Both the position numbers and the translations under genes were made by a program. Under the pieces are notes generated by a model. It was not told the DNA's origin, did not search any database, and was given only the letters and a program-made list of their open reading frames with translations. Below, piece by piece: positions 12,717 to 60,220 of a stretch of 64,000 nucleotides of DNA (positions are counted from its first letter, which is position 1; each line of letters begins with the position of its first letter). The stretch is from Candidatus Sysuimicrobiota bacterium (lineage in GTDB: Bacteria > Sysuimicrobiota > Sysuimicrobiia > Sysuimicrobiales > Sysuimicrobiaceae), in NCBI GenBank assembly GCA_040289515.1, contig PSLI01000004.1, positions 11,111 through 75,110 of the forward strand, read 5' to 3'.

Positions 12717-12789
12717 CTGCTGAGGTCTGCGCGGCCGCGGCAGGTTTGACGGTCCCCCCGCAGAGGGCTATCCTCGACGCGGAGCCGCC

Positions 12790-14088
12790 ATGATCATCCT
12801 CTGCGTGGGCACCAGCCACCGGACGGCACCCGTGGAGGTGCGGGAGCGCGTGGCGTTCCCGGAGAGCCGCCTGGGGGTGGCTTCCGCGCTCCTCCGGGGC
12901 CGCGATGGGCTGCACGAGGCGGTCGTTCTGTCCACCTGTAACCGCACGGAGGCGTACGTGGTGGCTGAGGAGGCTTGCGCGGGAACCCGGGCGGTCCTGG
13001 ATTTCTGGGGTGACTACCACGGGCTTCTCCCACAGGAAATGGAGCCATACGTGTACGCCTTGGTGGGTCCGGACGCGGTCCGCCACGTGTTCCGGGTGGC
13101 TGCGGGGCTGGACTCCATGATGGTGGGTGAGGTGCAGATTCTGGGGCAGGTGCGGGAGGCGTTCCGCGCCGCCCGCACCGCGCGGGCCACCGGCCCCCTG
13201 CTGGACGCCCTGTTCCGGCATGCCATCGCCGCGGGCCGCCGGGTCCGCCAGCAGACGGGAATTGAGCGTGGTTCCCTCTCGGTGCCGCAGGCTGCGGTGC
13301 AGCTCGCTCAGCAGCTGCTGGGGGGGTTGGAGGGTCGGCAGGTGCTGGTCCTGGGCGCCGGGGAGATGGCGGAGCTCACCGTGCGCCACCTGGTGGAGGC
13401 GGGCTGCGGGGGCGTGGTGGTGTGCAACCGCACCCTGGAGCACGCGCGGCCGGTGGCAGAGCGGCTGGGAGGGGTGGCGGTCCGGTTCGATGAGCTGAGC
13501 TGCTACCTGAGCCGGGTGGACATCGTGGTCACGTCCACCGCGGCGCCGCACCCGGTGGTGGAACCCGAGCTGGTGGTGCAGGCGCTCGCGGGCCGCCGCG
13601 AGCCCCTGGTGTTCGTGGACATCGCGGTCCCCCGGGATGTCCACCCCGCGGTGGGCCAGCTGCCCGGGGTGCGGCTGTTCAACGTGGACGACCTGCAGGC
13701 CGTAAGCGAGGCCACCCGCCAGGCCCGGCAGGCGGAGGTGATGCAGGCAGAGCGCATCGTGGCGGAGGAAACGGAACGGTTTTTCGGCTGGCTACGATCC
13801 TTGAAGGTGGTCCCCCTCATCACCGCCCTGAGGGCCCGCGCGGAGGCGGTGGCGGAGGAGGAGTGGCGGAGGGCGTTGCCGCGGCTGCAGGGGCTGACGC
13901 ACGAGGAGCGGGAGGCGGTGCGGGCCCTAGTGCACGCGGTGGTGAACCGGCTGCTGCACGGGCCCATCGTGCGCCTCAAGGAGATCGCCCGGCGGGAGGA
14001 GCCGGTTTACGTGGAAGCCGCCCGGACCCTGCTGGGGTTCGAGGAGGAGGGGGTCCGGGCTGCCGCGGAATCTGAAGCAGGCCGTTGA
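12790..14088 (+). CDS. hemA: Glutamyl-tRNA reductase
   Basis: LSTCNRTE motif and NAD-binding GAGEMAE. Confidence 0.9.
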   Translation: MIILCVGTSHRTAPVEVRERVAFPESRLGVASALLRGRDGLHEAVVLSTCNRTEAYVVAEEACAGTRAVLDFWGDYHGLLPQEMEPYVYALVGPDAVRHVFRVAAGLDSMMVGEVQILGQVREAFRAARTARATGPLLDALFRHAIAAGRRVRQQTGIERGSLSVPQAAVQLAQQLLGGLEGRQVLVLGAGEMAELTVRHLVEAGCGGVVVCNRTLEHARPVAERLGGVAVRFDELSCYLSRVDIVVTSTAAPHPVVEPELVVQALAGRREPLVFVDIAVPRDVHPAVGQLPGVRLFNVDDLQAVSEATRQARQAEVMQAERIVAEETERFFGWLRSLKVVPLITALRARAEAVAEEEWRRALPRLQGLTHEEREAVRALVHAVVNRLLHGPIVRLKEIARREEPVYVEAARTLLGFEEEGVRAAAESEAGR

Positions 14089-15008
14089 CCCTGCGCGTTG
14101 GCACCCGAGCGAGCTCCCTCAGCCGCCTCCAGACGGACTGGGTCCTCAAGCAGCTACGATCCCTGGACCCGCGCGTGCGGTTCTCCGTGCTGCCCGTGCG
14201 CACCGCAGGAGACCGATCCGCTCGGCCCATCCCCGAGCTGGGCGGTGCCGGATGGTTCACGAAGGAGCTGGAACGCGCCCTGCTGGACGGCGTGGTGGAC
14301 CTGGTGGTGCACAGCCTGAAAGACTTGCCCACGGAGCCTACACCCGGGCTGGTGGTAGCCGCCGTGCCGCCCCGGGAGGACCCCAGGGATGCCCTGGTGG
14401 GTGCGTGGCCCAGCCTGGACGACCTGCCGGCGCAATCCCGTGTGGGGACCTCAAGCCCCCGGCGGAAGGCGCAGCTGCTGGCGTACCGCCACGACGTACA
14501 GGTCGTTCCCCTGCGCGGCAACGTGGACACCCGGTTGCGGAAGGTGGCTTTTGGGGAACCGAGCGCCGCGGTGCTGGCCGCCGCGGGCCTAGTGCGGGGC
14601 GGCTGGCAGGATCACATCCGTCAGCTCCTGGACCCGGACGTGATCCTGCCGGCACCCGGACAGGGGGCGCTGGCCGTCCAGGTGCGGGAGGCAGACCGGG
14701 CGCTGGTTGACCTCGTGGCCGGGCTGGACCACCCGCCCACGCACGCCGCCGTGCGGGCGGAGCGGGCATTCCTGAGGGCGTTGGGTGGCGGGTGCAGCTT
14801 GCCCGCGGCTGCCCTGGCGGAATTTCAGGAGGGGCGGCTGCGGCTGCGGGTTCGGGTGCTGTCGGAGGACGGCAGCCGTCAGGTGTCGGTGCAGCGCGAG
14901 GGCTCTTTGGACGAGCCGGAACGGTTGGGACAGCAAGCCGCAGCAGAGGTTCGTCCGTTTTTGGCCCTGGTGGGAGGCACGCGGTGGGTGCGCAGCGAGC
15001 CCCGCTAG
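14085..15008 (+). CDS. hemC: Hydroxymethylbilane synthase (porphobilinogen deaminase)
   Basis: LRVGTRASSLSRLQ start. TTG start overlaps the hemA stop. Confidence 0.9.
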   Translation: MTLRVGTRASSLSRLQTDWVLKQLRSLDPRVRFSVLPVRTAGDRSARPIPELGGAGWFTKELERALLDGVVDLVVHSLKDLPTEPTPGLVVAAVPPREDPRDALVGAWPSLDDLPAQSRVGTSSPRRKAQLLAYRHDVQVVPLRGNVDTRLRKVAFGEPSAAVLAAAGLVRGGWQDHIRQLLDPDVILPAPGQGALAVQVREADRALVDLVAGLDHPPTHAAVRAERAFLRALGGGCSLPAAALAEFQEGRLRLRVRVLSEDGSRQVSVQREGSLDEPERLGQQAAAEVRPFLALVGGTRWVRSEPR

Positions 15009-15769
15009 AGGGCCGCACGGTGCTGGTCACCCGACCCCAGGATCAGGCGCAGGGGCTACGGACAGCCCTGCAGGCTCTGGGGGCCACGGTGCACGCGGTG
15101 CCCGTGATCCGGATTCGCGCCCTGGAGGACCCAGGTGCGCTGCGCCGCGCCGCGAGCCAGCTGGGGACCTATCACTGGCTGGTGTTCACCAGCCGGAACG
15201 GTGTCTTTGCCCTCGCGGAGCAGCTGCCTTCCCCGGAGCCGCTGCCCGAGGGCGTGCGGGTGGCGTGCATCGGTCCGGCTACCGCGGAAGCCGTCCGGCA
15301 GCTGGGCTGGCCCGTGCACCTGCAGCCCAGCCAGTACGTGGCAGAGTCCCTGGTGGAGGCCTTCCAGGAGGTGGGGATGGGTGGCCGCCGGGTTCTCCTG
15401 GTTCGCGCACAGGAGGCGCGGGGCGCCCTACCCGAGGGCCTGCGCCGCCTGGGAGCCCAGGTGGAGGTGGTCTGCGCGTACCGCACGGAGCCTGCGTACA
15501 ATGAAGCGGGGCGCCTACAGGAGGTGCTGCGGCAGGGTGTGGACGTGACTACTTTCTGCAGCCCTTCCGCGGTGCGGGCCGCGGTGCAGCTGTGCGGGGG
15601 GGCAACGCTGCTCCTTGAGGCTGTGCCCGCGGTGTGCATCGGTCCGGTGACCGCCTCCGCCGCGCTTCGGGCGGGACTCCGGGTTGCGGCGGTAGCGCAC
15701 CCGCACACCCAGGAGGGGCTCGTGGAGGCGGTGGTACGTTTCGTGCGGGGACAAGGGGGGCAACCGTGA
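14984..15769 (+). CDS. hemD: Uroporphyrinogen-III synthase
   Basis: GRTVLVTRPQDQA...LVFTSRNGV. GTG 14984 overlaps the hemC 3' end. Start approximate. Confidence 0.7.
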   Translation: MGAQRAPLEGRTVLVTRPQDQAQGLRTALQALGATVHAVPVIRIRALEDPGALRRAASQLGTYHWLVFTSRNGVFALAEQLPSPEPLPEGVRVACIGPATAEAVRQLGWPVHLQPSQYVAESLVEAFQEVGMGGRRVLLVRAQEARGALPEGLRRLGAQVEVVCAYRTEPAYNEAGRLQEVLRQGVDVTTFCSPSAVRAAVQLCGGATLLLEAVPAVCIGPVTASAALRAGLRVAAVAHPHTQEGLVEAVVRFVRGQGGQP

Positions 15770-16746
15770 GCTTTCCCGCATACCGGAGCCGACGGTTGCG
15801 GCGCACGGAGGCACTCCGGCGCCTGTCCCGGGAGGTGGAGCTATCTAGCTCCCACCTCATCGCGCCCCTGTTCGTCAAGGAGGGCATCCCGAACCCCGTG
15901 CCCATCCCCTCCCTGCCGGGTCAGGTGCAGCACACCCTGTCCAGTCTCGTGCAGGAGGTGGGCGAGCTGGTGGAGCTGGGGGTAGGTGCGGTGATCCTGT
16001 TCGGGATCCCTGCCCACAAGGACCCGGTGGGAAGCGGTGCCTGGGACGACCAGGGGATCGTGCAGCGGGCCCTGCGGGCGCTGCGGTCGGAGTTCCAAGA
16101 CCGCGTGGTGCTGATGGCGGACCTGTGCCTGTGCGAGTACACCAACCACGGACACTGTGGGGTCCTGGCGGACGGCCCGGAGACGGTGGACAACGACCGC
16201 ACCCTGGAGCTGTACGCCCGCATCGCGACCAGCCAGGCCCGCGCGGGCGCGGACGTCATCGCGCCCAGCGGGGTGATGGACGGCCAGGTGGCCGCCATCC
16301 GCCGGGCCCTCGATGAGACGGGGTTCTCTCAGGTGGCCATCGTAAGCTACGCCGCCAAGTTTGCTTCGGCCTTCTACGGGCCGTTCCGGGAGGCCGCGGA
16401 GTCCGCGCCACGCTTTGGACACCGCCGAGCTTACCAGCTTGAGCCGGTCAACCTGCGGGCGGCGCTGCGCCGGGTGGCGGAGGAGGTGCAGGAGGGCGCG
16501 GACGCCGTGATGGTCAAGCCCGCCCTCCCGTACCTGGACGTGCTGCGGGAGGTGCGTCGACGCTTTTTCGTGCCCGTGGCCGCCTACTGCGTGAGCGGGG
16601 AGTACGCCATGGTGCACGCCGCGGCGCAGCGGGGCTGGCTGGATCTGGAATCTGCCATGATGGAGGTCCTGCTGTCCGTGCGGCGGGCGGGCGCGGATTG
16701 GATCCTCACGTACTTCGCCAAGGACGCGGCGCGGCACCTGCGGTGA
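15766..16746 (+). CDS. hemB: Porphobilinogen synthase (ALA dehydratase)
   Basis: GTG overlaps the hemD stop. Active-site lysine region PSGVMDG and CLCEYTNHGHCG. Confidence 0.9.
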   Translation: MSFPAYRSRRLRRTEALRRLSREVELSSSHLIAPLFVKEGIPNPVPIPSLPGQVQHTLSSLVQEVGELVELGVGAVILFGIPAHKDPVGSGAWDDQGIVQRALRALRSEFQDRVVLMADLCLCEYTNHGHCGVLADGPETVDNDRTLELYARIATSQARAGADVIAPSGVMDGQVAAIRRALDETGFSQVAIVSYAAKFASAFYGPFREAAESAPRFGHRRAYQLEPVNLRAALRRVAEEVQEGADAVMVKPALPYLDVLREVRRRFFVPVAAYCVSGEYAMVHAAAQRGWLDLESAMMEVLLSVRRAGADWILTYFAKDAARHLR

Positions 16747-18026
16747 GGCTGTCCTCCGAAGCCTTGTTCCAGCGGGCGCGGCAGGTGATGCCGGGGGGTG
16801 TCAGCAGCCCCGTGCGCGCCTTCCGCGCGGTAGGGGGCACGCCGCCGTTTTCGGTGCGAGGGATGGGCGCGTATGTGGTGGACGTGGAGGGCCGCCGCTA
16901 CGTGGACTGCGTGGGCTCGTGGGGTGCGCTGATCTTGGGCCACGCCCACCCCGCGGTGGTGCAGGCCGCGCAGGCGGCGGTGGCGGACGGCAGTAGCTTC
17001 GGGGCACCCACCCCGTGGGAGGTAGAGTTCTGTGAGCGCCTGTGCCGGGCCATCCCGGGCATGGAGCGGGTGCGGCTCGTGAACTCGGGTACCGAGGCGG
17101 TGATGAGCGCCGTGCGGGTGGCTCGCGCGGCCACGGGCCGTGAGGGGATCGTGAAGTTCGACGGGGGCTACCACGGGCACACAGACGCCCTCCTGGTGCA
17201 GGCGGGCTCCGGGGCGGCCACGTTCGGCGTGCCCGACAGCGCGGGCGTACCCGCCTCCGCGGTGCGGGCCTCCTTCTCCCTGCCGTGCAACGACCTGGAG
17301 GCGGCCCAGGCCCTGTTCCGGCATCGGGGCCACGAGATCGCGGCGGTCCTGGTGGAGCCCGTGGCGGGCAACATGGGGACGGTGGCCCCTCGGCCCGAGT
17401 TTCTGCAGGGGCTGCGCGCGCTCATCCAAGAGTACGGTGCGCTGCTGGTGCTGGAGGAGGTCATCACAGGCTTCCGCCTGCGCTCCGGGGCGGCGCAGGA
17501 CCTGTTTGGCGTGCGGGCCGACCTTGCGTGCTTGGGCAAGGTCATCGGCGGTGGGTTTCCCCTGGCCGCGTACGGGGGCAGGGCGGACCTCATGGGCTTG
17601 GTGGCCCCGGAGGGCCCCGTGTACCAGGCCGGAACCCTGTCGGGCAACCCTGTGGCCGTGCGGGCGGGCCTGGCCACCCTCCAGCAGCTGGAAGACGGAG
17701 GGGTGTACGGGCGGTTGGAGCAGCATGGTCGGATGCTGGAGGAGGGGCTGCAGGAGGCCGCCCGCAGGGCGGCTGTAGCCGTGCAGGTGAACCGCGTGGG
17801 CTCCATGCTGACGGTGTTTTTCTGCGCGCACCCGGTGGTGGACTTCGCCACGGCCCGGAAGTCCGACGGGGCCCGGTTCGCCCGCTTCTTCCACGCCATG
17901 CTGGAACGGGGGGTGTACCTGCCCCCCTCACCCTTCGAGTCGTGGTTCTTGTCCGCGGTCCACGGGACCCGGGAGGTGGCCCACATCCTGGCGGCCTCGC
18001 AGGAGGCGTTCCGGGAGGCGGCATGA
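16743..18026 (+). CDS. hemL: Glutamate-1-semialdehyde 2,1-aminomutase
   Basis: SEALFQRARQVMPGGVSSPVRAF. GTG overlaps the hemB stop. Confidence 0.9.
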   Translation: MRLSSEALFQRARQVMPGGVSSPVRAFRAVGGTPPFSVRGMGAYVVDVEGRRYVDCVGSWGALILGHAHPAVVQAAQAAVADGSSFGAPTPWEVEFCERLCRAIPGMERVRLVNSGTEAVMSAVRVARAATGREGIVKFDGGYHGHTDALLVQAGSGAATFGVPDSAGVPASAVRASFSLPCNDLEAAQALFRHRGHEIAAVLVEPVAGNMGTVAPRPEFLQGLRALIQEYGALLVLEEVITGFRLRSGAAQDLFGVRADLACLGKVIGGGFPLAAYGGRADLMGLVAPEGPVYQAGTLSGNPVAVRAGLATLQQLEDGGVYGRLEQHGRMLEEGLQEAARRAAVAVQVNRVGSMLTVFFCAHPVVDFATARKSDGARFARFFHAMLERGVYLPPSPFESWFLSAVHGTREVAHILAASQEAFREAA

Positions 18027-26634: not shown

Positions 26635-26831
26635 GGAAGGACCGCAGCACATGGCACTTCGCCCTGGCCGGTTTCCTGGCGGTGCTGGCCCTAGCCGGAG
26701 TGGCCCTTATGGTGTACGGGGAGTGGTTTGACCAGCGGCTGGTGGCCTCCGGGGCCCTGGGCGTGATCCTGGTTTTGTACGCGGCCATCGTAGTGCTGTT
26801 CCGGAAGGCGGGTCTCACCGCGGAGGAGTAG
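26631..26831 (+). CDS. Small two-TM membrane protein
   Basis: 66 aa, VRKDRSTWHFALAGFLAVLALAGVALMVYGEW... GTG overlaps the preceding stop as GTGA. Confidence 0.4.
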   Translation: MRKDRSTWHFALAGFLAVLALAGVALMVYGEWFDQRLVASGALGVILVLYAAIVVLFRKAGLTAEE

Positions 26832-26832
26832 G

Positions 26833-28008
26833 GTGTACCGACGGCTGCTTTTGAGCCTGCAGAGCGCCACCCTGAGGCTGGACACCGTCCTAAACCGCGT
26901 CCTGCCCCAGGACTTCAACCCCCTGTACTACACGGGCGGGCTTGCGAACCTGTTCCTCACCATCCTGGTGGTGTCGGGGATCCTCATTTTCCTGTACTAC
27001 GAGCCCAGCCTGGAGGGCGCGTACGCCTCCGTGGAGTTCCTGACCCGGGACGTGCCCTACGGGGTGGTGTTCCGGGGGATCCACCGGTACGCCGCGGACG
27101 CCTACATGGTGGCGATCCTGCTGCACCTGTTCCGCAACTGGTTCACGGACCGCTACCGGGAGGCGCGGGACAGCCAGTGGCTGTCGGGCATGTTCCTGCT
27201 GGTGGTCTCGGGCTTTGCGGGCTTCACGGGCTACCTGCTGGTGTGGGACGAGCGAGCCCAGCTGCTTACAAGCCTCACGGCGCAGGCCCTACGGTCGGTG
27301 CCCCTGGTGGGAGGCTGGCTGGCCCGGGTGTTCCTGGGCGGGCCGGGTGTGAGCGACACGACCCTGTCCCGGTTCCTGTACCTGCATGTGGGGCCCGCCA
27401 TGACCGTGTACGTGCTCCTGTGGTGGCACTACGTACGCCTGCGCCACCCCAAGATCTGGCCTCCCGCGGTGTGGGTGCTGTTCAGCCTGGGCCTGCTGTT
27501 CATCCTCGCCTCCGCGCTGCCCGCGGCCAGCGGCCGTCCCGCGCAGCCGGGCGCGACCCCGGGGGGGTTCGCGGTGGATTGGTTCTTCCTCTGGCCGTAC
27601 GTGCTCGCCCGGTGGCTGGCGCCAGCCTGGGCCATGGTCCTGGTGGGAGCCCTTGTGGCGTACGGCATGGTCATCCCCTACACCCTACGGGAGACGCCCG
27701 AGCAGCGCGGCCTGCGGGCCCTGGGCCAGGCGGTGGTGGTGGAGGAGAACTGCACCGGCTGCGAGCTGTGCTACTACGACTGCCCGTACAACGCCATCTA
27801 CATGGTACCCAGTCCCTACCCCGGCAAGAGCCGGGCCGCGGCCAACCGCAAGCTGCTGGCGGTGGTGGTGGACTCCCGGTGTGTGGAGTGCGGGATCTGC
27901 ATCGGCGCCTGCCCGTTCGAGGCGCTGGAGCTGCCCAGGATGCTGGAAAAGGACGTGCAGCAGAGAATCCGGCGGGGCGCCCAGGTGGAGGCGCCCGTCC
28001 CTTCGTGA
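26833..28008 (+). CDS. Cytochrome b N-terminal domain (four His ligands intact) fused to a C-terminal 2x[4Fe-4S] ferredoxin domain
   Basis: H84/H98 and H185/H199 are at canonical spacing in helices B and D. The C-terminus carries CTGCELCYYDCP and CVECGICIGACP. Confidence 0.8.
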   Translation: MYRRLLLSLQSATLRLDTVLNRVLPQDFNPLYYTGGLANLFLTILVVSGILIFLYYEPSLEGAYASVEFLTRDVPYGVVFRGIHRYAADAYMVAILLHLFRNWFTDRYREARDSQWLSGMFLLVVSGFAGFTGYLLVWDERAQLLTSLTAQALRSVPLVGGWLARVFLGGPGVSDTTLSRFLYLHVGPAMTVYVLLWWHYVRLRHPKIWPPAVWVLFSLGLLFILASALPAASGRPAQPGATPGGFAVDWFFLWPYVLARWLAPAWAMVLVGALVAYGMVIPYTLRETPEQRGLRALGQAVVVEENCTGCELCYYDCPYNAIYMVPSPYPGKSRAAANRKLLAVVVDSRCVECGICIGACPFEALELPRMLEKDVQQRIRRGAQVEAPVPS

Positions 28009-54955: not shown

Positions 54956-55309
54956 ATGTCGGACCTGCGGAAGATCCTGGGCGAGCTGACCCAGCTGGAC
55001 GGCGTGAGCGCGGCCCTGGTGGTGGGCCGGGACGGCTTCGTGATCGAGGGCGCGGCCACGGAAGACGTGGACCTGGAGGCCCTGGCGGCGGTCACCGCCA
55101 GCAGCCTTGCAGCCTCCGACGCCCTGTCCGTGGATCTGGGCCGCGGCAGGCTGTTCGGCCTCATGCTGGAATACGAGGGCGGGCCTCTGGTGGTGTCGCC
55201 CGTGGGGCCGGAAGCCATGCTGGTCATCGTGGGCAACGGTACCGCCAACCTGGGCCGCATCCGACTGGAGCTGAAGAAGCGGCAGCAGGCCGTGGCCGAC
55301 GCCCTGTAG
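54956..55309 (+). CDS. Roadblock/LC7-domain protein
   Basis: LDGVSAALVVGRDGFVIE motif. [13 protein letters not shown]. Confidence 0.6.
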   Translation: MSDLRKILGELTQLDGVSAALVVGRDGFVIEGAATEDVDLEALAAVTASSLAASDALSVDLGRGRLFGLMLEYEGGPLVVSPVGPEAMLVIVGNGTANLGRIRLELKKRQQAVADAL

Positions 55310-55323
55310 GCGGGGAGGTCACA

Positions 55324-56046
55324 TTGCACCGCACAGCCTGGCGCGTGGACCTGCCGGGCCTGGCCCCCTACGGGGCCACCTGGCAGCTTCAGCGGGAGCT
55401 CGTGGCGTACCGCCAGCAGGGTCGGACACCCGATGTGCTGCTCCTGGTGGAGCACGCGCCCGTCATCACCTGCGGCCGCGCCACCCGCCCCGAGCACCTC
55501 CGTACGCCCCGCGAGGCCCTCCAGCGGATGGGGTTCGAGGTGCACGACGTGGAGCGGGGCGGCAGCGTGACCTACCACGGCCCCGGCCAGCTGGTGGGCT
55601 ACCCCATCGTGGACCTGCGGGCCTACGGGGAGAACGTGGTGGGGTACGTGCGCCTCCTGGAGGAGTCCGTCATCCGCACCTTGCGGGCTTTCGGGGTGGT
55701 TGGGTCCCGCCGGCCGGGTTTTCCGGGCGTGTGGGTTGGCGGGGAGAAGGTAGCAGCCGTGGGGGTGGCCGTCAAGCGCCGGGTCACCCTGCACGGGTTC
55801 GCCCTCAACGTGAACACCGAGCTGGCTGCCTTCCGGGTGATCAACCCCTGCGGCATCGACTATACCCCCACCTCCCTCCAGCGGATCCTGGGCCGGACCG
55901 TGCCCCTGGACGAGGTCCGCGAGGCCTACGCGGCCGCCTTCGAGGAAGTCTTCGGCCTGCGGCTGGTGCGGGTCGCGCTGGACCAGCTGCCCGCTGTCGG
56001 CATGGGAGCGCCTCCAGCACCTGCCAGCCCCGCGCGCCCCGCGTGA
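55324..56046 (+). CDS. lipB: Octanoyltransferase LipB
   Basis: LLLVEHAPVITCGR, TYHGPGQLVGYP and the catalytic KVAAVG lysine. TTG start. Confidence 0.8.
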   Translation: MHRTAWRVDLPGLAPYGATWQLQRELVAYRQQGRTPDVLLLVEHAPVITCGRATRPEHLRTPREALQRMGFEVHDVERGGSVTYHGPGQLVGYPIVDLRAYGENVVGYVRLLEESVIRTLRAFGVVGSRRPGFPGVWVGGEKVAAVGVAVKRRVTLHGFALNVNTELAAFRVINPCGIDYTPTSLQRILGRTVPLDEVREAYAAAFEEVFGLRLVRVALDQLPAVGMGAPPAPASPARPA

Positions 56047-56112: not shown

Positions 56113-56409
56113 ATGCCCACCGTATACCTGCCCGCGCCCCTGCGGCGGCTCACCGGGGGCGTGTCCCGAGTCCACGTGCCGCCCGGAACCGTGGCGGACG
56201 TACTAAGCGCCCTGGACGAACACTTCCCGGGCATACGGGCGCAACTGTGCGACGAGAACGGTTCCGTGCGGGCCTTCATCAACGTGTTCGTGAACGGCTC
56301 GGAGATCCGGACCCTGCAGGGCCAGCAGACCCCTGTGGGCGAGGAGGACGAGGTGTCCATCGTCCCCGCCATGGCGGGTGGGGGTCCCCGGAGGTGGCTT
56401 TGTCGCTAG
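56113..56409 (+). CDS. cysO: MoaD/ThiS-family sulfur carrier CysO-like, with an 8-aa extension after the Gly-Gly
   Basis: The sequence tracks M. tuberculosis CysO closely, ending ...VSIVPAMAGG. It then continues GPRRWLCR before the stop. Confidence 0.75.
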   Translation: MPTVYLPAPLRRLTGGVSRVHVPPGTVADVLSALDEHFPGIRAQLCDENGSVRAFINVFVNGSEIRTLQGQQTPVGEEDEVSIVPAMAGGGPRRWLCR

Positions 56410-56505
56410 TTCCCCGTCCGGCCGGCCCCCATCGGTAGGTATCCAGCAGGCCCCCGGAGGGCATGCGTGAGTCCGGGTGCGCCGCACCCCTCCCCCGCGG
56501 GCCCG

Positions 56506-57315
56506 ATGGCGCTGCCGGAGCTGCGGTTCTTCCCCACCCCGCAGGTGCTGCCGCACGAGGAGCACGACCCCCAACGGGTGGAACGGTTGGTGCGCCGGCT
56601 GGAGGAGGAGGGGGTACTGCGGAACCCTCCCGTGGTCGCGGAGCTGGGGGACGGACGGGTGGTGGTCTTGGACGGTGCCAACCGGGTGGCGGCCCTGGCC
56701 CGCATGGGAGCACCGCACCTACCGGTGCAGGTCGTCCCCTACCAGGATCCCTCCGTGGTCCTGGACCGGTGGCACCACCTGCTGGTAACAGTACCGGAGG
56801 GGTTTCCGCGAACGCAGGCGGAGGGCCTGGGCCTTCAGCCCAGCGACCCTGAGGTGGCGTCCCGGCGCCTGGCGTCCGGCGACTTGGTGGCATACGTGCG
56901 GGTGGGCGACAGCGCGTACGGCTTGCCCCGGGCGTCCACCTTGGTGGAGGATGCAGAGCGCCTGCGGCAATTGGTACATGCCTACCGGGGCCGGCACCCC
57001 TACCACCGGGTGGACTGTGAGGACCTGGAGGAACTGGCCGCCCGGTACGGGTCGCCCCGGGCCCTGGTGGCGTTCGGGCGGTTTCAGAAGGCGGAGATCC
57101 TGGAGCTGGCTCGCAACGCAGCCAAGCTGCCCGCAGGGGTCACACGCCACGTGGTGCCCGGCCGCGTCCTGCGGCTCAACCTGCCCCTGCTGGTGGCGTT
57201 CCGGCCCGGGTCCCCGGAGGAGAAGGACGCGTGGCTGGCCACGTGGGTGCAGCAGCGGCTGCGGGACGGGCGCGTGCGCTACTACCCGGAGCCCACCATC
57301 CTGTTCGACGAGTGA
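56506..57315 (+). CDS. ParB/sulfiredoxin-fold protein, candidate free L-serine kinase (SerK/SbnI-like)
   Basis: ParB/Srx box VVVLDGANRVAALARMG. Embedded between cysO and cysM. Start approximate (ATG 56506 or GTG 56467). Confidence 0.5.
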   Translation: MALPELRFFPTPQVLPHEEHDPQRVERLVRRLEEEGVLRNPPVVAELGDGRVVVLDGANRVAALARMGAPHLPVQVVPYQDPSVVLDRWHHLLVTVPEGFPRTQAEGLGLQPSDPEVASRRLASGDLVAYVRVGDSAYGLPRASTLVEDAERLRQLVHAYRGRHPYHRVDCEDLEELAARYGSPRALVAFGRFQKAEILELARNAAKLPAGVTRHVVPGRVLRLNLPLLVAFRPGSPEEKDAWLATWVQQRLRDGRVRYYPEPTILFDE

Positions 57316-57338: not shown

Positions 57339-58277
57339 GTGGCGTACCGATTCGAGACCAAGACGCCCCGGATCGGCGAGGATGTGCTGCAGCGTATCGG
57401 CAACACGCCCCTGCTGCGCCTGCGGCGGGTGACCCGGGGCTTGCCGGAGGGTGTGGAGGTGTACGTGAAGGCGGAGTGGTTCAACCCCGGGGGGTCCGTG
57501 AAGGACCGGCCCGTGCTGCGCATGATCGAGGACGCGGAACGCGCGGGCCTGGTGACCCCGGACAAGGTGCTGCTGGACTCCACCTCCGGGAATGCGGGCA
57601 TCGCGTACGCCATGATCGGTGCGGTGAAGGGGTACCGGGTGAAGCTGGTGATGCCCGCCAACGCCAGCGAGGAGCGCAAGCGCATGATCCGCGCGTACGG
57701 GGCGGAGCTGGTGTTTAGCGACCCCCTGGAGGGGTCCGACGGTGCCATCCTGCTAGCCCGCCGGATCCAGGAGGAGGACCCCGACCGCTACTACAAGCCC
57801 GACCAGTACAACAACCCGTCGAACTGGAAGGCCCACTACGACACCACCGGGCCGGAGATTTTGGCGCAGACAGACGGCCGCGTCACCCACTTCGTGGGGA
57901 CCCTGGGGACCACGGGGACGGTGGTGGGCGTGGGGCGCCGGCTGCGGGAGGCCAGCCCGGAGGTGGAGATCGTAGCCGTGGAGCCCGACAGCCCCCTGCA
58001 CGGCATCGAGGGGCTGAAGCACATCGCCAGCTCCATCCGGCCGGGGATTTACGACCCCTCCGTCCACCACCGGACGATGGGCGTAAGCACCGAGGTGGCC
58101 TACGCGATGGCGCGGAGGCTGGCACGGGAGGAGGGCCTGTTCGTGGGGGCGTCCACGGGTGCGGCGGTGTGGGCGGCGCTGCAGGTGGCCCGAGACTTGC
58201 GGGAGGGGTTGGTAGTGGCCCTGGGTCCGGACGGGGGGGACCGCTACCTGAGCACCGCCCTGTGGCGGGACGCGTAG
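57339..58277 (+). CDS. cysM: Cysteine synthase, CysM-type (O-phosphoserine sulfhydrylase-like)
   Basis: PLP lysine region GGSVKDRP plus STSGNAGIAYA and GTTGTVVG. Start is one of three in-frame GTGs (57312, 57330, 57339). Confidence 0.85.
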   Translation: MAYRFETKTPRIGEDVLQRIGNTPLLRLRRVTRGLPEGVEVYVKAEWFNPGGSVKDRPVLRMIEDAERAGLVTPDKVLLDSTSGNAGIAYAMIGAVKGYRVKLVMPANASEERKRMIRAYGAELVFSDPLEGSDGAILLARRIQEEDPDRYYKPDQYNNPSNWKAHYDTTGPEILAQTDGRVTHFVGTLGTTGTVVGVGRRLREASPEVEIVAVEPDSPLHGIEGLKHIASSIRPGIYDPSVHHRTMGVSTEVAYAMARRLAREEGLFVGASTGAAVWAALQVARDLREGLVVALGPDGGDRYLSTALWRDA

Positions 58278-58307
58278 GCCCCTGGCGTGTGGTATGTTGC
58301 TAAAGGG

Positions 58308-58742
58308 ATGCCGGACGGTTGGGCGGGCCCCGGAACGGACGCGGAGCGGCTCCAGGTAAGCCGTGCGCACCTGGAGACCATCGTGGCGCATGCCCGGGCG
58401 GAGCTGCCGAACGAGTGTTGCGGGGTGCTGGCAGGCCGCCACGGTCGCGTGGAGTGGGTGCGGCCAGTGGCCAACGCGGACCGCAGCCCCTACACGTACC
58501 GTATGGACCCGCAGGAGCTGCTACGGGCCTATCGCGAGGCCGACGCGGAGGGGCTGGAGGTGCTGGGCTACTACCACTCCCACCCCGCCACGCCCGCGGT
58601 GCCGTCCCGCACGGACGTGGTGCGGGCCACCGACCCCTTCGCGGTGTACGTCATCGTGTCCTTGGCCACTGATCCACCCGAGATCCGGGCGTACCGGATC
58701 CTGGATGGGCGCTACCGGGAGCTGGAGTTGAGTGTGGCATGA
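58308..58742 (+). CDS. mec: JAMM/MPN+ metalloprotease Mec-like (CysO C-terminal peptidase)
   Basis: NECCGVL...YYHSHPATPAVPSRTD JAMM motif (E-x-n-H-S/T-H-x7-S-x2-D). Confidence 0.8.
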   Translation: MPDGWAGPGTDAERLQVSRAHLETIVAHARAELPNECCGVLAGRHGRVEWVRPVANADRSPYTYRMDPQELLRAYREADAEGLEVLGYYHSHPATPAVPSRTDVVRATDPFAVYVIVSLATDPPEIRAYRILDGRYRELELSVA

Positions 58743-59197
58743 GGTTCTCCACGCGGGCGGAGTACGGGCTGCGGGCCCTGATTGACCTCGCTTTGTTCGG
58801 GGCAGAAGGTCCGGTGCAAACCCACGACATCGGGCGTCGCCAGGGCCTGCCGGAGCCCTACCTGAACCAGCTGCTGGCGCAGCTGCGGCGGGCGGGACTG
58901 GTGGTGAGCAAGCGCGGGCCCCACGGCGGCCACCGCCTGGCACGTCCTCCGGAGGCCATTCGGCTGCACGAGGTGTTCCGGGTGCTGGAAGGGAGCACCG
59001 CCCCGTGGGAGTGCGTGGATCGCGACGACCCCGCCTGTACGTACGCCTACGGCTGCGGGCTCCGACCCCTGTGGCTGCGCCTGAAGGAGGCTACCGACCA
59101 GGTCCTTCGCAACACCACCCTGGCGGACCTGCTGCCCAGCTTTGTGGCGCCTCTGGAGTCCCGCCCGGCCGGACACCGCACCCGCTCGGTGCTATAA
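58739..59197 (+). CDS. Rrf2-family transcriptional regulator (IscR/CymR-like, Cys-cluster type)
   Basis: Rrf2 [21 protein letters not shown]. Cys residues in [17 protein letters not shown]. Confidence 0.8.
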
Positions 59198-59346
59198 TCG
59201 ACTTGCGAGCGTCGGTTCGGAACACGATCGGGAACAGGGTTTTCCTGGAAACGCGGGTTGTGTCCGACCGAGTGGGCGGCGGGAGCAAGCCCCGCAGGAG
59301 CGTTGTCCAGGAGGGCCCTGTTCCTCGTTTGTTGCACGGCAGGCGC

Positions 59347-60003
59347 ATGGAGATGCTGGTGGCGCAGCAGCGGCAGTCGGTTCGATCCAGCGAAAGGTCG
59401 GATCCTCCGGCCGGCGGGGAGGCCGACCGCGCGCGGTTTGAGGCCCTGGTGCGGGAGCACCTGGACAGCCTGTACGGGGCGGCCCTGCGCCTAACCCGCA
59501 ATCGCAGCGACGCGGAGGATCTCCTGCAGGAAACCCTCCTGAAGGCGTGGCGGTCCTTCCACACCTTCGCGGAAGGGACCAACGCGCGGGCGTGGCTGTT
59601 TCGCATCCTCATGAACGCCCACATCGACCGGTACCGGAAGACCACCCGGGAGCCGGAGACCGCGGACATGGAGGACGTGGGCGAGTTTTACCTGTACAAC
59701 AAGGTGCAGGAGTCTGAGCTGCTGCGCCGCGTGGGCGACCCCGAGAAGCTCCTGGAGCGGGTGATGGAGCACGAGGTCCGCGAAGCACTGGAATCCCTCC
59801 CGGAACATTTCCGGAGCGTGGTGATCCTGGCGGACCTGCAGGGGTTCTCCTACCGGGAGATCGCGGACATCCTGGGGATCCCCATGGGCACCGTGATGTC
59901 CCGGCTGTTCCGTGGCCGCCGGCTGCTCCAGCGGAAGCTGTGGGACTACGTACGATCCCACCACCGGATCACCGTGGCGGAGGGGGCCGCCGTTGGACTG
60001 TAG
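59347..60003 (+). CDS. ECF RNA polymerase sigma factor (SigR/SigE-like)
   Basis: Region 2 [17 protein letters not shown] and region 4 [21 protein letters not shown]. Confidence 0.8.
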
Positions 60004-60220
60004 GGAGTTCGAGGCCAAGCTGTGGGCGTTCCTCGATGGCGAGCTGGAGGCTGCAGTGTGCGCGGAGCTGCGGGCCCACCTGGAGCACTGCCCCGGCTGT
60101 CTGCAGCACTACCGGTTCGAGGACGCCCTGCGCCTGTTCGTACGCCGCTGCTGCTACGAACGCGCCCCGCAAGCTTTCCGCGACCGGCTGGTCCAGCTGC
60201 TGGCCCGGCTGGAGGAGTAG
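59993..60220 (+). CDS. Zinc-binding (ZAS) anti-sigma factor, RsrA-like
   Basis: [38 protein letters not shown] carries the HxxxCxxC ZAS motif. TTG start overlaps the sigma gene by 11 nt. Confidence 0.6.

Follow-up and report, generated by a model that had tools for sequence, protein, structure and literature searches.

Contig PSLI01000004.1 of a Candidatus Sysuimicrobiota bacterium carries, within the 64,000-nucleotide stretch analyzed here (the window, to whose positions all coordinates refer), an open reading frame (ORF) located between genes for a CysO-like sulfur carrier and a CysM-type cysteine synthase. The product of this ORF is probably a free L-serine kinase of the SbnI/SerK type, which would feed O-phospho-L-serine (OPS) to neighboring enzymes dependent on pyridoxal phosphate (PLP). 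To our knowledge, archaeal SerK and staphylococcal SbnI are the only free-serine kinases characterized so far. The original prediction, made from the DNA sequence alone, had pointed to an ORF of 269–282 amino acids of the ParB/sulfiredoxin (Srx) type at this place and had proposed such a kinase from its DGxxR box and its position. The ORF is indeed present, preceded by a gene for a ThiS-fold protein and followed by cysM, and its box reads DGANR (encoded by 56671–56685) within the motif VVVLDGANRVAAL. Comparisons of sequence, profile and predicted structure, together with conserved residues, genomic context and gene fusions, uphold the assignment of a candidate free serine kinase.

56467–57315, + strand: SbnI/SerK-like two-domain protein, 282 amino acids, predicted free L-serine kinase (OPS synthase); from NCBIfam, PDB search, AlphaFold2 and Foldseek, profile, conservation and a Joint Genome Institute (JGI) gene call.
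56456–56461, + strand: Shine-Dalgarno-like GGAGGG, 6 nucleotides 5′ of the GTG at 56467; read from the sequence.

An in-frame internal ATG at 56506 would yield a 269-residue version of the protein. The GTG at 56467 is the more likely start, because GGAGGG precedes it and no ribosome-binding site precedes the ATG. For this contig, the JGI gene call likewise gives 282 amino acids from GTG 56467, and close homologues share the N-terminus (MSPGAP/MSAGG). The ORF is a real gene rather than a spurious frame produced by high genomic GC content, since its GC content at third codon positions is ∼0.9 in the coding frame, a word-indexed search finds more than 450 homologues at E≤1e-3, and relatives turn up in at least 518 genomes when one genome per species is scanned.

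No Pfam family, neither ParBc nor DUF1015, matches the protein at E≤0.01. A scan of NCBIfam returned two matches only, namely SbnI (NF033589, labeled [quoted passage not shown]; 1.8e-17, residues 19–275 on positions 8–247 of the 254-position model) and SerK (NF053625, “ADP-dependent L-serine kinase”; 6.6e-10). When the single sequence was searched against PDB sequences, the best match was SbnI (2.8e-14), followed by PF0380 of Pyrococcus furiosus (4.8e-10) and SerK of Thermococcus kodakarensis (3e-9), and then by Noc (0.012). A profile built from 22 homologues matched SbnI at 3.3e-29 and SerK at 3.6e-13, both over the full length. Comparison with SerK and SbnI was the check that the original prediction had proposed, and it had named a best match to sulfiredoxin or partition ParB without SerK or SbnI similarity as the outcome that would speak against it. 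The opposite was seen.

The predicted structure points the same way. An AlphaFold2 model computed from the 22-homologue alignment (mean predicted local distance difference test score, 89.5; predicted template modeling (TM) score, 0.85) has a two-domain fold, in which an N-terminal ParB/Srx-like domain is joined to the C-terminal domain specific to SbnI and SerK. In a Foldseek search of the PDB, the top nine entries (5UJE, 5UJD, 6NR6, 5X0B, 5X0E, 5X0G, 5X0J, 5X0K and 1VK1) are exclusively SbnI, SerK or PF0380, with 228–264 aligned columns, target TM scores of 0.76–0.81 and E values from 2e-18 to 2.5e-15. Structures of Noc, ParB, sulfiredoxin and PadC match only the ∼80-residue N-domain (E≥7e-5, query TM score ∼0.25), and are weaker by at least 10 orders of magnitude; those of Srx align over 75–95 columns at E≥1.8e-3.

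The residues expected of a serine kinase active site are encoded at three places.

56554–56559, + strand: codons for His30-Glu31; Glu31, the putative catalytic base, aligns with SerK Glu30 and SbnI Glu20; from profile alignment, invariant in 84/84 members.
56671–56685, + strand: codons for Asp69-Gly-Ala-Asn-Arg73, the DGxxR nucleotide-phosphate box of the ParB/Srx fold; from PDB alignment and conservation.
57142–57150, + strand: codons for Thr226-Arg227-His228 in the C-domain sequence LPAGVTRH; Arg227 corresponds to SbnI Arg202 and SerK Arg224; from profile alignment and conservation.

At eight positions (H30, E31, P54, D69, G70, R73, W102 and R227), all 84 family members have the same residue as SbnI and SerK, and the profile aligns H30-E31 with H29-E30 of SerK and H19-E20 of SbnI. 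Three further motifs, WHH, PAGVTR and a C-terminal R-x-Y-x-E, are common to the family and SbnI only. SerK Glu30 has reportedly been described as the catalytic base, and both Glu20 and Asp58 of SbnI are said to be needed for activity. The titles of PDB entries 5x0e, 5x0g, 5x0j and 5x0k identify them as E30A and E30Q mutants of SerK. The LDGANR segment contains no Cys; sulfiredoxin is a single domain of ∼100–130 residues with a catalytic Cys in its nucleotide box.

An exhaustive profile search of 1.84 billion cluster representatives (50% identity) yielded 1,934 sequences at E≤1e-3, including 1,203 at E≤1e-10 and 444 at E≤1e-30. Source names of family members are, without exception, “hypothetical protein” or “ParB N-terminal domain-containing protein”. 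The closest relatives of the window protein include one from Candidatus Tepidifontimicrobium thermophilum (phylum Ca. Sysuimicrobiota), and a neighbor-joining tree places the family as a monophyletic group with SbnI as its sister and SerK at the root. For the study of gene neighborhoods 80 loci were fetched, all from assemblies of uncultured organisms (79 labeled as metagenome-assembled genomes, one as an “isolate” contig assembly), and these represent Armatimonadota/Sysuimicrobiota-like bacteria, Chloroflexota (Thermoflexus, Anaerolineae), Eisenbacteria, Betaproteobacteria, Dormibacterota and others. As judged from sequence, what is new is a large, unannotated bacterial clade of SbnI/SerK-type proteins, whereas the enzyme type itself is known. 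Makino et al. noted no clear-cut SerK homologues in bacteria (PMC5120207), and a survey of the ParB fold mentions SerK, SbnI and Srx as the sole ATP-using outliers (PMC12704722). Our literature search, partly crowded by papers on plant SERK, produced no earlier account of bacterial SbnI/SerK-like kinases beside cysO/cysM or TrpB2.

The 80 loci were screened by tblastn with the window proteins and with three further PLP enzymes found nearby, and partners were classed by NCBIfam. Neighborhoods were also taken from called genes (including loci L082, L083, L085 and L086) and from Pfam and NCBIfam scans; all-versus-all ORF clustering and GC-frame gene calling were set aside, as they were misled by antisense ORFs in DNA of 70% GC. 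A gene for a fold-type-II PLP enzyme lies within 1.1 kb of the kinase-like gene in 42 of the 80 loci, compared with ∼2.4% expected from the density of PLP genes in the distal flanks of the same loci. Where at least 1.5 kb is available on both sides, such an enzyme is nearby in 34 of 62 loci. Thus, the neighborhood statistics that the original prediction had called for are strongly positive.

The partners belong to four subfamilies. In 25 loci a CysM-type gene follows directly and in the same orientation, and in two more it lies 2 kb away, after cysO. Cystathionine beta-synthase (CBS; TIGR01137, 531 bits, above cut-off) is encoded directly upstream in most of the CysM-type loci, and it is the only PLP partner in five loci from Chloroflexota. 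A TrpB2-type enzyme (NF009057, 663–678 bits) is adjacent in six of the 80 loci, of which five are labeled Betaproteobacteria and one Chloroflexia (L030, L038, L039, L041, L055 and L079), and also at the fusion locus L085 described below. The fourth partner, a homologue of IlvA/EutB-like serine/threonine dehydratases whose best NCBIfam match (235 bits) is under all cut-offs, is adjacent in six Eisenbacteria loci (L016, L049, L051, L054, L072 and L080). The CBS context appears in at least three separate parts of the family tree, as does the TrpB2 context. TrpB2 enzymes are OPS-dependent tryptophan synthases (Busch 2014, as cited in PMC11917138), M. tuberculosis CysM takes OPS and the CysO thiocarboxylate as substrates (PMC9547175), and SbnI provides OPS to the PLP enzyme SbnA (PMC7139808). 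More tentatively, the family may be a general bacterial module for OPS supply that has been recruited repeatedly beside different PLP enzymes, a generalization that we regard as possible but somewhat short of an even chance.

Gene order varies among relatives. At L082 it is lipB-CGL-CBS-kinase-CysM-JAMM-Rrf2-ECF-antisigma, with a ThiF/rhodanese gene farther on, and at L083 it is MTHFR-ThiS-Sulf_transp-TusA-rhodanese/ThiF-CysM-kinase. In L008 and L027, TrpB2 is encoded ∼4.6 kb upstream of the cys cluster, and L072 carries an upstream gene for methionine sulfoxide reductase. Three loci (L023, L058 and L065, the last from Ca. Nitrosymbiomonas) have the order lipB, kinase-like gene, JAMM, Rrf2, and cysO and cysM do not lie between them; the association of the kinase-like gene with JAMM and Rrf2 persists where the synthase has been lost or is encoded elsewhere. 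In Thermoflexus, among the loci that have no neighboring PLP enzyme, an S1-domain gene is upstream of the kinase-like gene and a gene for an RluA-type pseudouridine synthase is downstream.

Fusion proteins, which were sought among the 150 best representatives of the exhaustive profile search, several of them long, provide an independent view of the function. In three mutually distant proteins (P0169, P0266 and P0235), an N-terminal D-2-hydroxyacid dehydrogenase is followed by the SbnI-like domain. The dehydrogenase part best matches SerA (TIGR01327; 382, 357 and 163 bits, with only the catalytic part covered), and the SbnI-like domain takes the place of the usual regulatory C-terminus of SerA. 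One such fusion gene (L086:6001–7764) follows a class-V aminotransferase gene in a PGK-glpX-aldolase cluster, and another (L085:859–2670) follows TrpB2. Other members are fused to a ThiS domain (P0125, 371 amino acids, three cluster members, seen on at least two contigs) or to a JAMM domain (P0154, 438 amino acids, two members on contigs of 32 kb and 61 kb). Some of these fusions connect the family with phosphoserine metabolism, others with the CysO/JAMM system. Clusters of serK with serA and an aminotransferase gene are known in Desulfurococcales (PMC5120207).

In the window, the kinase-like gene belongs to a compact set of genes that also includes the following.

56113–56409, + strand: cysO-like sulfur carrier of the ThiS/MoaD beta-grasp fold, 98 amino acids, ending in PAMAGG plus an 8-residue tail; Pfam ThiS 7.8e-14, NCBIfam SAMP1 NF041918 63.2 bits (cut-off 60).
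56383–56406, + strand: C-terminal extension of CysO, GPRRWLCR, after Gly-Gly; read from the sequence.
57339–58277, + strand: cysM-type cysteine synthase, a fold-type-II PLP enzyme, 312 amino acids; PALP 1.8e-71, TIGR01138 cysM 389 bits, TIGR01136 cysKM 357 bits (cut-off 344); start according to the JGI call.
58287–58742, + strand: JAMM/Mec+-type metalloprotease (putative role), 151 amino acids; Prok-JAB 4.2e-30, desampylase NF041370 107 bits, under the cut-off of 130.
58739–59197, + strand: Rrf2-family regulator, CymR/IscR-like, 152 amino acids; Rrf2 4.2e-38, CymR NF047409 99.5 bits, under cut-off.

The five + strand genes are packed into 56.1–59.2 kb with spacings of 57, 23 and 9 nucleotides and then a 4-nucleotide overlap. 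Consensus scans detected no promoter-like or terminator-like sites inside the block, and the operon has no Rfam match that would indicate a riboswitch. A carrier with the ThiS fold and Gly-Gly, a CysM-type PLP enzyme and a JAMM hydrolase are therefore encoded together. Among the genes sought in the window, only cysM and cysO are present; CBS, CGL and TrpB2 are not found, nor is there an E1 enzyme of the ThiF/MoeZ type for CysO within the 64 kb. Because this E1 is missing from the window, the cassette is not fully self-sufficient, and the original description of it in those terms was overstated. Relatives L082 and L083 have a ThiF-rhodanese gene in or near the equivalent cluster. Genes for serA, serC and serB were absent from the 20 other window ORFs scanned with Pfam, all of which are housekeeping genes.

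Every CysO homologue in the kinase-linked loci (L001–L075) extends past AMAGG, by 1 to ∼25 residues of variable sequence. The presence of a tail after Gly-Gly in all of them implies, so far as sequence can tell, that CysO must be processed at its C-terminus before thiocarboxylation, and the tail is probably removed by the JAMM protease of the operon. In seven relatives (L010, L013, L021, L027, L034, L040 and L075), the CysO frame remains open from AMAGG into the cystathionine beta-synthase gene, giving read-through products of 543–582 amino acids (for example, L021:1002–2650) that can be likened to a ubiquitin-fusion precursor. We know of no described fusion between a sulfur carrier and CBS.

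These data suggest a route to cysteine in which the kinase would act first, converting L-serine and a nucleotide to OPS, with Glu31 serving as the base and the DGANR box and Arg227 holding the phosphates. The nucleotide is probably ATP, since SbnI, the closer relative, uses ATP. The co-transcribed CysM would then eliminate phosphate to form the PLP-aminoacrylate, which would be attacked by the CysO thiocarboxylate (CysO-COSH), and an S-to-N acyl shift would give CysO-Cys. Hydrolysis of CysO-Cys by the JAMM protein would release cysteine and free CysO. Before entering this cycle, pro-CysO would lose its tail after Gly-Gly, probably through the action of the same JAMM protein, and the Rrf2 protein would regulate the operon. 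We infer the roles of JAMM and Rrf2, the phosphate donor and a preference of CysM for OPS over O-acetylserine (OAS) from these similarities and from the genomic context.

Several observations weigh against the kinase assignment or against parts of this route. Identity to the characterized enzymes is just 18–24% (21–24% for SbnI, 18–19% for SerK), and the protein falls under the equivalog cut-offs of both families, scoring 63.5 bits versus 350 for SbnI and 38.6 bits versus 380 for SerK. Because these scores are so far under the cut-offs, the protein is, by sequence, a relative of SbnI and SerK in a separate clade and an orthologue of neither; given the low identity and low scores, its substrate could have shifted from serine. 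The middle pair of the DGxxR box also differs, being Ala-Asn in the window protein, Val-His in SbnI (DGVHR) and His-His in SerK (DGHHR). In ∼48% of loci the kinase-like gene has no adjoining PLP enzyme, although no recurrent alternative context emerged from the flanking ORFs that could be called in 30 such loci, whose flanks are heterogeneous. Moreover, OPS is obtainable via SerA and SerC too, the route from which it is thought to come in M. tuberculosis. As to the phosphate donor, a SerK-like archaeal protein has been reported to bind CTP and not ATP (PMC12704722).

The partner enzyme gives a similarly mixed picture. The window CysM is 48% identical to the enterobacterial (Salmonella) CysM and 42% identical to that of M. 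tuberculosis (sequence checked against PDB 3DWG), and is without the C-terminal extension of the latter. At the position of M. tuberculosis Arg220, which we take to be the phosphate-recognizing residue, Lys (in IEGLKH) is found in all nine kinase-linked CysM sequences aligned, those of the window and eight related loci. However, the OAS-using Salmonella CysM has Arg at this position, such that a basic residue there is non-discriminating. Because of this, we infer OPS use by the window CysM from the neighboring kinase gene. An analogous basic residue is cited for the A. pernix and T. kodakarensis enzymes (PMC5120207). The premise of the original prediction that CysO-dependent CysM enzymes use OPS has been demonstrated for M. 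tuberculosis CysM alone (PMC9547175).

The alternative that best survives, although unlikely, is that a kinase of the same fold acts on the hydroxyl of another small molecule, such as L-homoserine, L-threonine or D-serine, and feeds a related PLP reaction. The low identity and the scores under the cut-offs would suit such a shift, as would the IlvA/EutB-like and CBS-type neighbors, which have no characterized OPS-dependent member, and a Streptomyces thiocarboxylate pathway employs O-phosphohomoserine (as cited in 10.1101/2024.10.14.618325). Nonetheless, both characterized relatives are serine-specific, with SerK being inactive on threonine and homoserine (PMC5120207). The window gene is partnered by a cysteine synthase, which exceeds the cysKM cut-off, and not by a homocysteine enzyme resembling threonine synthase, and the links to TrpB2 and SerA indicate phosphoserine as the C3 compound.

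It is also quite unlikely that the protein is mainly a regulator of the cys operon with little or no catalysis, a function that would be compatible with a kinase role and would correspond to the other role of SbnI, which doubles as a DNA-binding activator of the sbn operon that responds to heme, as its bifunctional label reflects (NF033589; PMC7139808). ParB-fold proteins often bind DNA. In the family studied here, however, none of the 84 members departs from the catalytic Glu, Asp and Arg, neither Pfam nor Foldseek found a helix-turn-helix (HTH) or ParB DNA-binding domain, and the operon already has a dedicated Rrf2 regulator. Fusions to SerA, JAMM and a ThiS-fold carrier likewise suit a metabolic role.

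An improbable variant of the phosphoserine connection has the protein working in reverse, or as a phosphotransferase, on OPS and thereby substituting for SerB, as proposed for the unrelated DUF1015 “SerBK”. The SerA fusions and the place of one fusion gene after a class-V aminotransferase gene recall a serine-biosynthesis operon, and the GapMind preprint makes the case that SerB can be replaced by a protein with a kinase fold (10.1101/2024.10.14.618325). The same preprint, however, estimates K at ∼4e-4, which makes this direction thermodynamically unfavorable. In addition, the window and at least 42 loci have a PLP partner, and characterized relatives of two of the four partner subfamilies (M. 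tuberculosis CysM and TrpB2) consume an activated serine, a use that requires the kinase to run forward.

We consider it very improbable that the protein activates CysO itself, for instance by phosphorylating the C-terminal carboxylate that a ThiF/MoeZ-type enzyme would otherwise adenylate. The lack of ThiF/MoeZ in the window and the existence of ThiS and JAMM fusions would fit this idea, and Srx, which has the same fold, phosphorylates an acidic sulfinate. Yet relatives retain a ThiF-rhodanese gene in or near the cluster, many family members are encoded beside TrpB2 or SerA with no CysO nearby, and the residues common to the serine kinases are conserved. Least probable of all is an ordinary ParB (a partition protein or CTP clamp), ParB-like nuclease or sulfiredoxin located in the operon by chance, for although the DGxxR box, the N-terminal ParB/Srx-like fold, weak Noc matches (E 0.012–0.03) and a past report of the SerK homologue PF0380 as a nuclease (PMC5120207) might be cited in its favor, the protein has no ParBc match, HTH or dimerization domain and no Cys in its box, ParB, Noc and Srx structures align with it over one domain only, and no parA gene occurs among the neighbors annotated with Pfam or NCBIfam (all called genes of L081–L084 and L086, the two flanking the L085 fusion, and the flanks of 30 further loci; parS was not searched for). 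The remaining loci were screened just for the window's own cluster genes and the four PALP types.

Two specific members of this last group were rejected individually: a canonical ParB/Noc CTP clamp, from the missing ParBc, HTH and dimerization matches and the structural alignment of the N-domain only, and sulfiredoxin, from the length of 282 amino acids, the two domains, the Cys-free box and the partial structural alignment.

A free serine kinase therefore remains the preferred reading, and among known systems SbnI of S. aureus and S. pseudintermedius (5UJD, 5UJE and 6NR6; NF033589) is the best match to the window protein by sequence, profile and structure (Foldseek 2e-18, 259–264 columns). 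The two share the two-domain architecture and the motifs LHE, DGxxR, WHH, PAGVTR and R-x-Y-x-E, and the operon of SbnI also has a gene for a fold-type-II PLP enzyme, SbnA, which consumes OPS (PMC7139808). They differ in pathway, that of SbnI leading to a siderophore by way of L-2,3-diaminopropionate (L-Dap) and that of the window to cysteine via a protein thiocarboxylate; in the sequence identity, score and box residues given above; and in regulation by heme and DNA binding, which is a trait of SbnI without evidence in the window protein. Their hosts differ as well, being Staphylococcus on one side and uncultured Sysuimicrobiota/Armatimonadota-like bacteria, Chloroflexota, Eisenbacteria and Betaproteobacteria on the other.

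SerK (T. kodakarensis TK0378, 5X0B and related entries; PF0380, 1VK1; NF053625) resembles the window protein in fold over both domains (target TM score 0.81) and in three matched elements, Glu30 with Glu31, DGHHR with DGANR, and TTRH with VTRH. In the SerK host, serine is converted to OPS and then to cysteine by an OPS-using cysteine synthase (PMC5120207), the role proposed here as well, and the archaeal clusters of serK with serA and aminotransferase genes find a parallel in the SerA fusions of the bacterial family. SerK is nevertheless more distant than SbnI, ADP-dependent and archaeal, and its partner CysK takes sulfide and not a CysO thiocarboxylate. By analogy, the window system would functionally resemble SerK with the OPS sulfhydrylase of Thermococcus and SbnI with SbnA of Staphylococcus.

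At the level of the operon, the window looks like the mec+-cysO-cysM system of M. tuberculosis (Rv1334–Rv1336) with an inserted kinase gene. A ThiS-fold carrier, a CysM-type PLP enzyme and a JAMM hydrolase are common to both, whereas the M. tuberculosis cluster has no serine kinase gene and another gene order, and the window differs from it in the tail of CysO after Gly-Gly and in the features of CysM noted above. DUF1015 “SerBK” proteins (GapMind 2026 preprint, 10.1101/2024.10.14.618325) are likewise bacterial candidates for free-serine kinases, identified from the context of serA and serC; they form another family, however, with just remote structural similarity to SbnI according to the preprint, whereas the window protein matches SbnI by sequence.

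Directly upstream of the cys genes (54956–56046) are a Roadblock/LC7 gene and lipB, which encodes an octanoyltransferase; lipB likewise precedes the cluster in 24 of the 80 loci (L001, L003–L005, L007, L008, L010 and others) and in L082. The Rrf2 gene is followed by genes for an extracytoplasmic function (ECF) sigma factor and a zf-HC2 anti-sigma factor, the three together spanning 58739–60220, likewise in L082, and a promoter-like CGGACA-17-TATAAT with an extended TG occurs at 59170–59198, the end of the Rrf2 gene. Together, the Rrf2, ECF and anti-sigma genes may constitute a redox- or thiol-responsive control unit. Farther away, an ORF at 26794–28005 joins an N-terminal cytochrome b domain to a C-terminal 4Fe-4S dicluster ferredoxin domain, and it adjoins genes for a second cytochrome b, a di-heme cytochrome c and a divergent COX1-like protein in an unusual respiratory module. 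A heme biosynthesis cluster occupies 12724–18023 (GlutR_N/GlutR_dimer, hemA-type; Porphobil_deam, hemC-type; ALAD, hemB-type; and a class-III aminotransferase, hemL-type), and the rest of the window contains core housekeeping genes (PBP1, RuvB, SpoIID, GDH, MreB, PBP2, RNase E/G, AlaRS and YceG). The heme cluster and the housekeeping genes thus indicate a chromosomal setting and not a mobile one.

The finding draws attention to a large bacterial clade that databases carry under the names “hypothetical” or “ParB N-terminal domain-containing”. If the predicted activity is confirmed, a step from serine to OPS would be added to the CysO/CysM/Mec+ pathway, which is known so far mainly from M. tuberculosis, TrpB2 enzymes would have a candidate source of OPS, a systematic mis-annotation would be corrected, and a rule for cysteine synthesis would become available for pathway reconstruction in several uncultured phyla. 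If, beyond this, the family is a general module for OPS supply, then OPS, and not serine or OAS, would be the physiological substrate of CysO-dependent CysM outside Actinobacteria, and also that of the kinase-linked CBS-type and IlvA/EutB-like enzymes, both of which are without OPS-dependent precedent. The SerA::kinase fusions would unite two OPS routes in one polypeptide. In the same case, the OPS that the enigmatic TrpB2 tryptophan synthases, enzymes of unclear physiological role, need in vivo would come from the kinase, the supplier missing so far. The result extends a known enzyme type rather than introducing a new principle, and its interest would be greater if the links to TrpB2, CBS and IlvA-like enzymes prove to reflect OPS-dependent chemistry.

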